A stretch of DNA of 64,000 nt from Acidobacteriota bacterium (GTDB taxonomy: Bacteria > Acidobacteriota > Thermoanaerobaculia > Multivoradales > JAHZIX01). The stretch is from NCBI GenBank assembly GCA_034211275.1, contig JAXHTF010000001.1, forward strand, positions 120,590-184,589, written 5' to 3'. The notes under the pieces are model-generated. The model saw nothing but the letters and a program-made list of their open reading frames with translations. It did not search any database and was not told where the DNA came from. Below are positions 16,801 through 19,800 of this stretch, piece after piece. The number at the start of each line of letters is the position of its first letter. The first letter of the stretch is position 1. The translations under genes were made by a program, and so were the position numbers.

Positions 16801-19800
16801 CTCGACGCCTTCCCGCGCACCGGCAGCGGCAAGGTGGACCGCAACGCCCTGCCGTCCCCGGACGCCAGCCAGGTCAAGGCCCAGGGCTTCGAGCCCCCCA
16901 CCACCCCCCTGGAACGCCACCTGGAGGCCCATTGGTGCCGCGTCCTGGGAGTCTCTCGGGTGGGCCGCAACGAGCGCTTCTTCGACCTCGGCGGCAACTC
17001 CATCCAGGCGGCCATCGTGGTCAACGCGCTGCAGCAGGAGCTGGGGGAGATCCTCCACGTCACCGCTCTCTTCCAGGCCCAGACCCTGCGGGACCTGGTG
17101 GCCTTCCTGGAAACCCACTACCCCGAGGGCACCCGCAAGCTGCGCCTGCGGCTGGGGGAGTCGGCGGCGCCGCTGCCCGCCGCCCCCGGCCAGGAAGAGG
17201 GCGTCGGCCCCTTCGACTTCCTCGACCTGCGGCGGATGGTGGCCGAAGCTCACGAGGCCCGAAAGACCCAAGAAACCAGTGAAGCCGAGCCCAAAGCGAA
17301 GCTGCCGCCGGCGATCTTCATCCTCTCGCCGCCGCGCTCCGGCTCTACCCTGCTGCGGGTGATGCTCGCCGGCCACTCCCGGCTGTTCTCGCCGCCGGAG
17401 CTCGAATTGCTCGGCTACCGCACCCTGGGGAAGCGCCGGAACGACCTGTCGGGGGCCCACCGCTTCGCCCGGGAAGGCCTGCTGCGGGCGGTGATGGAGC
17501 TCGAAGACTGTGACGCCGAGGAGGCCATTCGCCGCCTCGGCGAGCTGGAGGACGCAGACCGCCCGGTGGCCGACGCCTATGCCTACCTGCAGGAGCGCAG
17601 CGGCCGCACGGTGGTGGACAAGACCTCTACCTACGCCCTCGACCCCACCGCCCTGGCGCGGGCGGAGGAGCTCTTCGACGGCGCCTACTACATTCAGCTG
17701 GTGCGCCACCCCTGCGCCACCGTGCGCTCCTACGTCGACGTGCGGCTGGAGCAATTCCTGCGCTTCGACAACCCCTACACGCCGCGCCAGCAGGCGGAGC
17801 TGCTGTGGACCGTGGGGCAGCAGAATATCCGCCGCTTCTTCGCCCAGCTGCCTCCGGAGCGCCACCGCACCCTGCGCTTCGAGGACCTGCTGGCGGATCC
17901 CGCGGGGGTGATGCGGGACCTGTGTCGCTGGCTGGGCCTCACGCCGGAGGAGGCGATGCTCGAGCCCTACCAGGGCGAGCGCATGACCGACGGCCTCTAC
18001 GCCCAATCCCGGATGCACGGCGACCCCAAATTCCACCAGCACGACGGCATCGATGCGCGGGCGGCGGCCAGCGGCACCGACCGCTACCCCCTGAAGAGCC
18101 TGGCGCCGGTGACCCGGGACCTGGCGGCCGAGCTCGGCTATCCCTCCGAGGGAGACACCGAGGGCCTCATCCCCGCCGCCGCGGGGGAAGTGCAGCTCTC
18201 CTTCGCCCAGGAGCGGCTGTGGCTGATCCACCAGATCGAGCCCGACAGCCCCGCCTACCACATCCCCGCCGCCGTCAGCCTGCGCGGTGAGCTGGACGAG
18301 GCGGCGCTGGAGCGGGCCTTGGCGGCGCTCCTCCGGCGCCACGCCGTGCTGCGCACCGCCTACGGCACCCGCGAGGGCCGTCCCCGGGCGATGGTGCTGC
18401 CCAACCCCAATCCGCGGCTGCGGCGGCTGGATCTCACCGAAGCCTCCAGCTCCGATTCGCCTCTCCCGGCGGACCGCGATGGACTGATCGCCGAACTCGC
18501 CCGGCGCGAGGCCCTGGAGCTCTTCGACCTGGAGAGCCCGCCGCTGCTGCGCGCCACCCTGCTCCGCCTCGGCGCCGATGAGTCGCTGCTGCTGGTCACC
18601 CTGCACCACATCGTCGCCGATGGCTGGTCCCTGGGAGTGCTGGTGGGCGACCTGGCGGCGCTCTACGAGGCCGAGCGCCTGGGGGCACCGTCCCCCCTCG
18701 GCGCTCTGCCGGTGCAATTCTCCGACTACGCCGCCTGGCAGCGGCGCCGGTTGGAAGCTTCGGAGGACAAGGCCCGGGAAGGAGAGCCCAGCGGCCTGGA
18801 GAAGCTGCTCGACTATTGGCGCGGCGAGCTCGGGCACCGGGAGCTGATTCTCGAGCTGCCCACCGACCATCCGCGGCCCCTGGAACCCTCCGCCGAGGGC
18901 GGCGAGGCCTCCCTCACCGTGGCACCGGAAGTGGTTCAAGGCCTGGTGCAGCACGGCCGGGAGCACGGCGCCACCCTCTTCATGGTGGTGGCGGCGGCGC
19001 TCCAGACCCTGCTCCACCGCCTCAGCCAGCAGGACGAGGTGGCCATCGGCACCGCCGTCGCCAACCGTCCGCGGGCGGAGCTGGAGCCCCTCATCGGCTG
19101 CTTCGTCAACCTGCTGGTGCTCGCCCAGGACACTCCCGGCGGCCGCTCCTTCGAGGAGCTCCTGGCGGCGGTGAGCCAATCCGTGGTGGGCGCCTTCGAG
19201 CACCAGGAGCTACCCTTCGAGCGCCTGGTGGAGGCGCTGGACCCACAGCGGGATCTGGGCCGCCACCCCCTCTTCCAGGTGCTGCTGCTGTTCCAGAACG
19301 CGCCGGTGCCGCGCATCGAGCTGCCGGGGCTGGTGCTGAGCTCGGTGGACGTGCCCGCGGGCACCTCGCCCTACGACCTCATCGTCACCCTGGCGGAGCA
19401 GCAGGGCGGCCTGGGGGGAACCCTCAAATACCGCCGCGACCTCTTCGACGCCGCCACCGGCGAGCGCTGGGCGCGAGCCTTCGAGACCTTGTTGGGCGGC
19501 CTCGCCAAGGGCTTCGAGCCACGCCTCGACACCCTGCCGGTGCTCACCGCCGCCGAGCGCCACCAGCTGGTCCACGGCTGGAACGCCACGGACCGACCTC
19601 TCGCCGCCCTCGAGGAGTCGGTGAGCCGGCGCTTCCGCCGAACCTGTGCGGACCGGAGCGAAGCGCCGGCGCTGGTGGCCGGCGAGGAGAGCCTTTCCTA
19701 CGGCCAGCTGGGGCGCCGGGTGGCGCGCCTTTCCCGGCGGTTGCGCCAGGCTGGGTTCGATGCTGGGGTCGGTGCCGGCGTCGGCCCGGAGCAGCCGGTG

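Follow-up and report, generated by a model that had tools for sequence, protein, structure and literature searches.

An intact CurM-family sulfotransferase domain beside a glycine module in an NRPS of an uncultured Acidobacteriota bacterium

The window analysed here is a stretch of 64,000 nucleotides of an Acidobacteriota bacterium (assembly GCA_034211275.1, contig JAXHTF010000001.1, positions 120,590 to 184,589 of the forward strand), and it carries a glycine-rich lipopeptide–polyketide assembly line of this uncultured organism (Table 1). Within the window the assembly line comprises three large proteins, P1, P2 and P3, and is accompanied by two exporter genes and a stand-alone sulfotransferase-fold gene. 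For the interval between AT and ACP in P1, searches of Pfam, NCBIfam and the PDB matched nothing apart from the post-AT linker; by eye it looks like a ketoreductase (KR) remnant that lacks both the glycine-rich NADPH loop and the YxxxN motif, and we treat it, as a working assumption, as an inactive KR. A minus-strand gene between P3 and the ABC transporter (orf461, 30643–32028) had no informative match in Pfam and NCBIfam searches, among others. An Rfam scan of the window was empty, and the single tRNA called by ARAGORN was dismissed, as it lies inside the P1 coding sequence.

Table 1. Genes and domains of the assembly line and its flanks (positions in the window).
Feature	Position	Strand	Remarks
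MacB/FtsX-type exporter, C-terminal part	8–1546	+	gene start left of the window
orf279, sulfotransferase-fold gene	1548–2387	-	279 aa; TTGRSGTG P-loop
P1	2447–13741	+	starter-type C, A(Gly), T, KS, AT, degenerate KR-like region, ACP, C, A(Gly), T
Condensation domain C1 of P2	13957–15288	+	HHIVSDG motif intact
Adenylation domain, module 4	15346–16833	+	specificity code DILQLGLIWK (glycine)
Carrier (T/PCP) domain, module 4	16921–17109	+	Pfam PP-binding aa 1034–1096; GGNS phosphopantetheine site present; directly upstream of ST
CurM-family ST domain	17284–18141	+	P2 aa ~1155–1440 (domain order: 1163–1440); PAPS loop PPRSGST; Glu1193 in SPPELE; Lys1267 in VDKTSTY; RHP...S 1295–1303
Condensation domain C2	18190–19521	+	HHIVADG; directly after ST
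Doubly interrupted adenylation domain, module 5	19624–23331	+	code DILQLGMVWK (glycine)
Luciferase-like monooxygenase (LLM, TIGR04020)	20476–21492	+	lies between motifs a4 and a5 of the module 5 A domain; NCBIfam 407.6 bits, cut-off 244; Pfam Bac_luciferase
FkbM-family methyltransferase	22459–23040	+	late in module 5 A domain (a8–a10 region); Pfam Methyltransf_21 E 4e-16; TIGR01444 E 1e-30
Carrier domain T2, module 5	23419–23616	+	from the domain order of P2
P3	23742–30626	+	KS-AT-KR-DH-ACP + terminal C domain (HHLITDG)
ABC transporter, fused membrane + ATPase domains	32103–33911	+	right edge of cluster

The stand-alone gene orf279 had no match in Pfam (E ≤ 10), NCBIfam or PDB sequence searches, and its sulfotransferase (ST) fold was exposed by structure prediction only. 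The predicted structure (pLDDT 91) returned sulfotransferases as 50 of its 50 top PDB fold matches, and alignment to an ST profile by hhalign was weak (probability 31%). The family comprises 220 homologues, including a 100% match to an Acidobacteriota MAG protein, and the gene is syntenic in related clusters. An overlapping plus-strand ORF (1515–2450) was rejected as a gene because its translation is of low complexity, while the minus-strand ORF has the 220 homologues.

P2 (3307 aa) is encoded by a single open reading frame (13822–23745), which holds an ST domain in frame in the order C(46–489)-A(509–1004)-T(1034–1096)-ST(1163–1440)-C(~1457–1900)-A(~1935–3170)-T(~3200–3265), with an LLM (2219–2557) and an FkbM methyltransferase (2880–3073) inserted in the second A domain. 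The earlier note had placed a CurM/olefin-synthase (OLS)-type ST at 17290–18130, which proved right to about 10 bases when the extent was taken from alignment to the CurM ST; the motifs [26 protein letters not shown] and YIQLVRHP are present in the translation of that interval. The family assignment is right as well. Pfam Sulfotransfer_3 (PF13469) matches the domain at E 1e-28 (101 bits, cut-off 27), and phmmer against the PDB retrieved the CurM ST 4gbm (E 1.3e-64) and the OLS ST 4gox (E 4e-61), at an identity of ~42%, with the next match at only E 0.014. The AF2 model of the domain (pLDDT 82.6) reaches a Foldseek TM of 0.88 to 4gbm and 0.86 to 4gox; its low-confidence segment, 227–249, presumably corresponds to the mobile active-site flap of the CurM ST.

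The domain is real and intact. It contains both the PAPS-binding loop PRSGST and the 3'-phosphate motif RHP...S, where R1172, G1174, T1176, R1295, P1297 and S1303 are each shared by at least 97% of 250 relatives. It retains 39 of the 39 positions conserved at that level, including the PAPS loop, Glu and Lys. Glu1193 (SPPELE) aligns to Glu60 of the CurM ST and Lys1267 (VDKTSTY) to its Lys133, which we take to be the CurM catalytic residues; the roles assigned to Glu60, His62 and Lys133 reportedly go back to the CurM ST structure of McCarthy et al. 2012. The position of CurM His62 is occupied by Glu in the window ST, and we rejected this exchange as a sign of degeneration, given that Glu is usual there in NRPS-embedded relatives. 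Glu is found in 134/156 ST-C and 47/54 ST-TE relatives, so that His62 does not define the wider ST family. Judged by its sequence, the window ST is probably catalytically intact and PAPS dependent; PAPS would be held by Lys1267 and the PRSGST loop, and Glu1193 would deprotonate the acceptor.

In the offloading of polyketides, CurM-type ST domains are the textbook case of sulfate serving as a leaving group. The window ST shares with those of CurM (curacin A) and OLS the fold, the family, the PAPS loop, the catalytic Glu and Lys and the position directly after a carrier, but the active site and the setting differ: CurM has His62 and a DKSPTY loop where the window ST has Glu and DKTSTY, and CurM and OLS are ACP-ST-TE offloading units partnered with a PKS module whose KR produces a beta-hydroxyacyl chain, whereas the window ST precedes a C domain and is partnered with an NRPS C-A-T module that loads glycine. 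No KS or KR is present in this ST-bearing module, C-A(Gly)-T. The earlier note's order of PCP-ST-C without a TE is thereby confirmed for P2, with the correction that a TE does exist on a separate protein, the product of a synthetase gene ending in T-TE that the source genome carries immediately to the left of the window. Upstream, C1 is intact, and module 4 is therefore an elongation module.

The same note had called this context unusual, which overstated the case. The T-ST-C architecture is not rare: it occurs in hundreds of metagenomic NRPSs and has published precedents in cyanobacterial NRPS loaders, namely the GA+ST loader of oci (oscillapeptin/cyanopeptolin; PMC2533009) and the MT-FkbH-ST loader of DysB (dysinosin; PMC6520454). 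Like the window ST, these STs are internal to an NRPS, follow a carrier and precede a C domain, often with a methyltransferase (PMC2533009, PMC6520454), but they sulfate an FkbH-loaded glyceric acid starter, whereas the window ST sits in an elongation module with tethered glycine, and an NCBIfam profile search found no FkbH domain in P2. One relative (L013) has the FkbM-FkbH-T-ST-C layout of the oci and DysB loaders (TIGR01686 FkbH, 312 bits).

The first search for ST homologues returned only proteins of up to 533 aa, and architectures were taken from a search of cluster representatives and a metagenome scan instead; a scan of genome contigs gave 3 loci only. At a threshold of E ≤ 1e-30 the relatives amount to 1094 cluster representatives, the best 150 of which are nearly all NRPS A-T-ST-C or A-T-ST-TE, and in most of the 79 metagenomic loci and these 150 representatives the ST lies between the T of a C-A-T module and the next C. 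The window ST nests inside this NRPS-embedded clade (ST identity 45–76%), which is very large and apparently uncharacterised. The literature searched, with most subscription journals outside its coverage, yielded neither an NRPS elongation-module ST nor a sulfonation–elimination route to dehydro-amino acids.

Across the family, the residue activated upstream of the ST is commonly a hydroxy amino acid. Upstream codes among the relatives are Ser (48), Thr (40) and Tyr (15), with Gly a minority of 10. Ser/Thr/Tyr codes account for 49/107 ST-adjacent A domains versus 16/108 non-adjacent ones in the same proteins (Fisher p 7e-7), and Gly codes are not enriched (7/107 versus 10/108). ST-TE units without a downstream module likewise follow Ser/Thr/Tyr (22 cases), and ST sequences cluster by upstream residue in the tree, which was built by NJ only. 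These patterns suggest that NRPS-embedded STs act on the intermediate of the carrier just upstream, usually Ser, Thr or Tyr. About half of the ST-adjacent codes are something else, and for that reason a hydroxyl on the adjacent residue is no universal rule for the acceptor.

The earlier note had proposed that the ST sulfonates a carrier-bound hydroxy amino acid, and this is supported for the family but not for this locus. The metagenomic A-T-ST-C and A-T-ST-TE modules share the architecture of the window, but most of them have Ser, Thr or Tyr upstream where the window has Gly: with specificity codes read by pairwise mapping to a single reference A domain, each of the window's four A domains is of the glycine type, and the code upstream of the ST is the same in the relatives L001 and P0128. 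The note had let its Ser/Thr proposal hinge on the specificity of the upstream A domain, which turned out to be that of a residue with no hydroxyl, and a sulfated Ser/Thr or a Ser/Thr-derived dehydro-amino acid is impossible from a module coded in this way. We thus consider it extremely improbable that the window ST transfers sulfate to the hydroxyl of a Ser/Thr-type residue on the PCP of its own module, with a sulfated lipopeptide as the outcome, or a dehydro-amino acid if elimination follows, even though this may well hold for most relatives, with their enriched Ser/Thr/Tyr codes, and for the nearest outgroup of the glycine-linked STs, a 21-member clade that is A(Ser)-T-ST-C throughout.

The STs that follow glycine modules also carry a pocket signature of their own. 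The window ST falls in a small Gly-linked subclade in which the loop beside the catalytic Lys has changed from DKTPSY to DKTSTY. The residue two after this Lys is other than Pro in 9/10 Gly-linked STs versus 5/103 Ser/Thr/Tyr-linked ones (p 3e-9), Leu1209 is found in 10/10 versus 13/103, and Thr1270 in 10/10 versus 15/103, and these substitutions recur across at least three separate positions in the tree. As far as the alignments tell, the pocket of the Gly-linked STs is specifically remodelled next to the catalytic Lys, and because of this remodelling the window ST cannot, in our reading, use a Ser/Thr side chain. The Gly subclade being sister to an all-Ser clade, and Gly lacking enrichment beside the ST, one might see in the domain a non-catalytic relic or structural spacer left by a Ser-to-Gly swap of the A domain in an ancestral module. 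We find this very unlikely in view of the complete set of family-conserved positions and of the conservation of the ST in two diverged relatives, L001 (76% ST identity) and P0128 (65%), where it is maintained like the catalytic A and T domains (55–83%) and far better than the adjoining T-ST linker (43–52%); the upstream C domain of module 4 is 82% identical in L001. The appearance of the same pocket substitutions in independent Gly-linked lineages argues for adaptation, not decay.

What the window ST might sulfonate instead is suggested by module 5. Glycine modules of the MtaG/MelG/SolF type contain an embedded flavin or luciferase-like monooxygenase, and module 5 is likewise Gly-coded with an LLM, which lies between a4 and a5 (FD motif at aa 2150, NxYGPTE at 2648) as it does in MtaG and MelG (PMC10204066). 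An LLM or FMO domain embedded in a glycine A domain gives rise to alpha-hydroxyglycine (PMC10204066). Module 5 differs from these precedents in its additional FkbM insertion and in leading to PKS extension, not to a TE, and no ST domain is mentioned for MtaG, MelG or SolF as described in PMC10204066. As the best explanation we tentatively favour transfer of sulfate to a heteroatom that is attached to the glycyl alpha-carbon, or adjacent to it, in the chain bound to the module 4 carrier (T1); for this transfer the likeliest acceptor in this cluster would be the glycine alpha-hydroxyl supplied by the LLM of the neighbouring module. An alpha-sulfate at this place would be a labile leaving group, in the manner of N-acylimine chemistry, and not a stable decoration. 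In favour of such an acceptor, the syntenic ortholog P0128 (L085) keeps the downstream LLM-bearing glycine module in the order C-A(Gly)-T-ST-C-A(Gly,LLM)-T followed by KS, without FkbM; since the window and P0128 are orthologs, the pairing of ST and LLM counts as one evolutionary event.

The favoured alpha-hydroxyl is set against by the location of its source: the LLM is in module 5, the ST follows the T of module 4, and in MtaG-type systems the LLM acts on the glycine of its own module (PMC10204066). The same precedent favours an ST that reaches across the C domain to T2 and sulfonates LLM-made alpha-hydroxyglycine there, competing with or preceding O-methylation by FkbM, as does P0128 with its ST and LLM and no FkbM. 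We hold such a reach to be decidedly improbable, however, because family-wide the carrier that an ST partners precedes it, and in ST-TE units there is no carrier further downstream. In the window, moreover, FkbM would compete for the same hydroxyl, and the A(Thr-like)-FkbM module of P0166 suggests that FkbM methylates the hydroxyl of its own module.

A further point against the alpha-hydroxyl comes from three other Gly-linked relatives, L086 (P0129), L087 and L088, which are loader-like modules with no LLM nearby and no full C domain before the Gly module, so that a free amine is the only heteroatom on the tethered substrate. L087 combines a methyltransferase with A(Gly)-T-ST-C-A-T-TE and an MFS gene, and L088 is A(Gly)-T-ST-C-T-TE; neither a hydroxylase domain nor an LLM was found in these two, and in L086 a gene for an FAD-dependent monooxygenase lies just downstream. 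L087 and L088 carry the pocket signature of the window ST, while P0129 retains Pro (DKTPTY). In these loaders the ST may N-sulfonate the glycyl alpha-amino group to a sulfamate. A partial analogue is SulN of sulfazecin biosynthesis, a stand-alone enzyme that carries out PAPS-dependent N-sulfonation in trans on the diaminopropionate amine of a carrier-bound peptide; as in our proposal, a carrier-bound NRPS intermediate is sulfonated before the next step. That the window ST does the same is quite unlikely: the intact C domain upstream in module 4 means that the amine is destined for amide formation, a sulfamate nitrogen is a poor condensation acceptor, and we know of no CurM-family ST that makes N–S bonds.

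A stable sulfate ester elsewhere on the T1-bound chain, finally, would yield a sulfated glycine-rich lipopeptide. Its acceptor could be the hydroxyl of a 3-hydroxy fatty acyl chain introduced by the starter C domain, or else the enol form of the beta-keto unit from the KR-dead PKS module; P1 does open with a starter-type C domain and has the degenerate KR-like region, the MacB and ABC exporters would fit an anionic lipopeptide, and, with about half of the ST-adjacent A domains not of hydroxy-amino-acid types, some members of the family must have acceptors that are remote or made in trans. Even so, we regard a remote acceptor as unlikely here. The ST is three modules away from such a hydroxyl, its sequence co-varies with the type of the adjacent residue, which points to a nearby acceptor, and the stand-alone orf279 would be the more natural enzyme for remote or post-assembly sulfation.

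The closest relatives of the window ST are thus found mostly in NRPS, not PKS, modules, and soil and sediment metagenomes contain hundreds to thousands of such NRPS-embedded STs, with no published biochemistry that we could find. If they act on tethered Ser, Thr or Tyr, they would constitute a new on-line tailoring step, which could lead to sulfated peptides, to dehydroalanine or dehydrobutyrine by another route, or to enamide-forming ST-TE release. The Gly-linked subclade is the hard case, in that its ST is intact, conserved and remodelled and yet has no obvious acceptor. It is possible, if doubtful, that the Gly-linked STs form a distinct functional class that sulfonates a heteroatom at the glycyl alpha-carbon (an LLM-made alpha-hydroxyl in elongation modules and a free alpha-amine, giving a sulfamate, in loaders), and that A-T-ST-C and A-T-ST-TE modules more broadly represent an undescribed, widespread NRPS route to sulfated residues, dehydro-amino acids and terminal enamides in uncultured soil bacteria. 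The window ST adjoins a rare glycine module with both a hydroxylase and an O-methyltransferase, and it comes from the Acidobacteriota, a phylum from which hardly any natural products have been characterised; the locus thus lends itself well to reconstitution in vitro and to product discovery from this phylum.

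Translation of window positions 17290-18130 recovered the motifs on which the earlier note had based its call of a CurM/olefin-synthase-type sulfotransferase domain (ST), and the family assignment held. The segment matches Pfam Sulfotransfer_3 (E 1e-28), and its best PDB sequence matches are the CurM ST (4gbm, E 1.3e-64) and the olefin-synthase ST (4gox, E 4e-61), with the third reaching only E 0.014; an AlphaFold2 model (pLDDT 82.6) aligns with 4gbm at a TM score of 0.88. The order of P2, one of three NRPS/PKS proteins in the cluster (P1-P3), is C-A-T-ST-C-A-T, which bears out the PCP-ST-C arrangement and confirms the embedded CurM-type ST. 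No degeneration was seen on alignment: the catalytic residues (a Glu and a Lys that match CurM Glu60 and Lys133), the PAPS loop (PRSGST) and the RHP...S motif are all kept, as are 39/39 alignment sites that at least 97% of 250 relatives share. The CurM His62 position holds Glu, which is no defect because Glu is usual there in NRPS-embedded relatives (134/156 before a condensation domain, 47/54 before a thioesterase). ST is 76% and 65% identical to two diverged relatives (locus L001 and P0128, the protein of syntenic ortholog L085). The adjoining A and T domains show 55-83% identity to these relatives and the T-ST linker just 43-52%, a pattern that fits purifying selection on ST. By every computational check applied, ST is intact.

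Features of the window, with positions and strands
Feature	Position	Strand	Description
MacB/FtsX exporter	8-1546		only C-terminal part in window
279-aa gene	1548-2387	minus	predicted sulfotransferase fold, TTGRSGTG loop
P1	2447-13741		starter C, A, T, KS, AT, degenerate KR-like region, ACP, C, A, T
P1 AT-ACP interval	8144-10036		aa ~1900-2530
tRNA-Arg(GCG) call	9925-9992	minus	ARAGORN; inside P1 coding sequence
P2	13822-23745	plus	single 3307-aa ORF, contains ST
ST domain	17284-18141	plus	in frame within P2
Module-5 A domain	19624-23331		P2 aa ~1935-3170; glycine code, interrupted twice
P3	23742-30626		KS-AT-KR-DH-ACP-C
461-aa ORF	30643-32028	minus	directly after P3; coding-like codon bias
ABC exporter	32103-33911		fused membrane and ATPase domains
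ORF in low-G+C stretch	39902-40567		
Low-G+C stretch	40001-42000		G+C 0.56
ORF in low-G+C stretch	41110-41991		
Separate small cluster	42002-47509	minus	five genes

Mapping of the ten Stachelhaus positions gave DILQLGLIWK, the canonical glycine code, for the A domain upstream of ST, and the Ser/Thr-type substrate proposed in the earlier note falls at this locus by the very check put forward with it. The remaining three A domains read DILQLGLIWK, DILQLGLVWK and DILQLGMVWK; the same glycine code precedes ST in L001 (an Acidobacteria MAG, 72-82% domain identity) and in L085/P0128 (a JGI contig), and P1-like genes in further orthologous clusters are likewise glycine-coded. Sulfonation of a carrier-bound hydroxy amino acid nevertheless stands for the family, if not for the substrate here. 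The A codes upstream of 250 ST domains were Ser (48), Thr (40), Tyr (15), Gly (10) and other (about 90), with no A domain visible in 45/250. When ST-adjacent A domains were controlled against non-adjacent ones within the same representative proteins, Ser/Thr/Tyr codes made up 49/107 and 16/108, respectively (odds ratio 4.9, p 7e-7), and glycine codes were not enriched next to ST (7/107 vs 10/108). ST sequences also cluster by upstream residue in a neighbour-joining tree, and in 22 cases Ser/Thr/Tyr codes precede an ST-TE unit, after which no module follows. On these sequence patterns, we infer with good reason that the family sulfonates a hydroxy amino acid on the preceding carrier; about half of the ST cases do not fit this rule. 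Ser, Thr or Tyr A-T-ST-TE modules occur in loci L009, L024, L030, L042, L048, L052-L055, L080 and L084 and in proteins P0122-P0124, P0132, P0144 and others. By analogy with CurM, the Ser/Thr units could couple sulfonation to decarboxylative elimination and yield a terminal enamide, and for the Tyr units a stable sulfate would be the sole outcome; the literature searched describes neither product of A-T-ST-TE.

HMMER, run exhaustively over 1.84 billion representatives, matched ST in 1094 clusters at E<=1e-30, the best 150 of which are nearly all NRPS proteins of A-T-ST-C or A-T-ST-TE architecture; two ST domains occur in some of them. A metagenome scan gave at least 490 confirmed relatives, and the architectures of the 79 loci retained match those of the representatives. 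A few relatives are FkbM-FkbH-T-ST-C loaders, matching the published glycerate-sulfating ST loaders of the oci (PMC2533009) and dysinosin (PMC6520454) pathways. Given hundreds of metagenomic T-ST-C examples and these cyanobacterial precedents, the description of the context as unusual was overstated; a literature search of incomplete coverage found no publication on amino-acid elongation modules with ST. In Pseudoalteromonas luteoviolacea S2607 (L003, NZ_AUXV01000014.1, 5432-13889), the order KS-AT-KR-ACP-ST-C-A(Ser-like) places a CurM-like ST after a KR-containing PKS module and before an NRPS C domain, not a TE, and this host is cultured, which opens ST-C function to experiment.

A peptidyl-glycyl thioester offers few acceptor options, as it lacks a side chain and its nitrogen is an amide. 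The A domain of module 5, which follows ST, is interrupted between a4 and a5 by a luciferase-like monooxygenase (LLM; TIGR04020, 407 bits vs a cut-off of 244) and late in the domain by an FkbM-family methyltransferase, and KS-AT-KR-DH comes after the module. Module 5 would by inference build and extend an O-methylated N-acyl hemiaminal (alpha-methoxyglycine), all in cis. For myxothiazol, melithiazol and solanimycin, alpha-hydroxyglycine is known to arise through an LLM or FMO domain within a glycine A domain (PMC10204066). ST precedes C-A(Gly, LLM)-T both in the window and in P0128, where the FkbM insertion is absent. The Gly-linked STs of L087, L088 and L086 belong to modules lacking a full upstream C domain, with no LLM nearby; L086 has an FAD-dependent monooxygenase gene just downstream, and the substrates of L087 and L088 present no heteroatom other than the free alpha-amine. 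The LLM pairing and these loader-type relatives alike suggest that the acceptor is a heteroatom on the alpha-carbon. N-sulfonation of the glycyl alpha-amine by ST seems quite unlikely in P2: the condensation domain of module 4 is intact and well conserved, so the amine would be consumed in condensation, and the alpha-hydroxyl from LLM is therefore favoured. Tentatively, that hydroxyl may be the acceptor; LLM would supply it on the glycyl unit and ST would sulfonate it, the sulfate then serving as leaving group. Against an alpha-hydroxyl acceptor, LLM is located in the next module, not in ST's own; the ST-LLM pairing is a single evolutionary event; and FkbM probably methylates the hydroxyl of module 5, one relative having FkbM inside a Thr-like A domain. 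Action of ST on the carrier of module 5 looks improbable: FkbM would compete for that hydroxyl, and in ST-TE units there is no carrier downstream of ST.

A stable sulfate ester placed by ST on a remote hydroxyl is conceivable but doubtful, and a second gene bears on it. The 279-aa protein, 100% identical to the Acidobacteriota MAG protein SX243_00385, has 220 homologs; sequence searches of Pfam, NCBIfam and PDB found no match for it. In four or more other contigs its gene likewise lies between MacB and a P1-like gene. Every one of the top 50 PDB fold matches of its model (pLDDT 91.3) is a sulfotransferase, with TPST, SULTs and CurM ST among them (TM 0.42-0.55), and the family appears from the model to comprise sulfotransferases beyond the reach of current profile libraries. 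The cluster thus probably encodes two sulfotransferases, which makes a sulfated product more likely; equally, the 279-aa protein would be an alternative enzyme for any remote hydroxyl.

A T-TE-ending synthetase gene directly upstream of MacB (same organism, short contig L094, 4845-5900) lies left of the window start, so the cluster extends past the edge; related contigs L092 and L093 carry KS-X-T-C-A-T-TE at the corresponding place. The P1 AT-ACP interval (about 500 aa) has no domain match and by eye is a ketoreductase remnant without the glycine-rich NADPH loop (CTGAEDPA) or catalytic Tyr motif; this PKS module therefore probably leaves its beta-keto group unreduced. The tRNA-Arg(GCG) call there lies in GC-rich coding DNA and is most probably spurious, as Rfam at gathering threshold has no match anywhere in the window. 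The 461-aa ORF has no Pfam, NCBIfam or PDB match. Window G+C is about 70%; the low-G+C stretch (vs about 0.70 elsewhere), whose two ORFs have no Pfam match, may be foreign or non-coding DNA. The separate small cluster encodes an FAD-dependent oxidoreductase, a fatty-acyl-AMP-ligase-like enzyme, an ICMT-family methyltransferase, a type III polyketide synthase and a 127-aa ORF, and resembles alkylresorcinol or alkylpyrone loci.

In the tree, L001, P0128 and P0129 join the window ST in a Gly-linked group whose sister is a 21-member clade composed entirely of A(Ser)-T-ST-C. Substitutions that are rare elsewhere recur in ten Gly-linked STs, which occupy three or more positions in the tree: Pro is missing two residues after the catalytic Lys (DKTPSY to DK[T/S][S/T]TY) in 9/10 vs 5/103 Ser/Thr/Tyr-linked STs (p 3e-9), Leu occupies P2 aa 1209 in 10/10 vs 13/103, and Thr occupies aa 1270 in 10/10 vs 15/103. 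P2 aa 1402 also discriminates and falls within a low-confidence model segment, which we take to be an active-site flap. These substitutions look like adaptation to a different acceptor rather than decay, and that ST is a relic domain is highly improbable. L087 (NCBI GCA_029626105.1, JARUBH010000009.1, 9039-18807) is a minimal cluster of a methyltransferase, an A(Gly)-T-ST-C-A-T-TE protein and an MFS transporter; a BTAD/SARP-type regulator lies close by and a hydroxylase is absent. It is the simplest system for probing Gly-linked ST function. NRPS-embedded ST domains form a large, biochemically untouched class, within which the interest lies in the Gly-linked subclade, with its remodelled pocket and no obvious acceptor, beside a rare hydroxylase-plus-methyltransferase glycine module.
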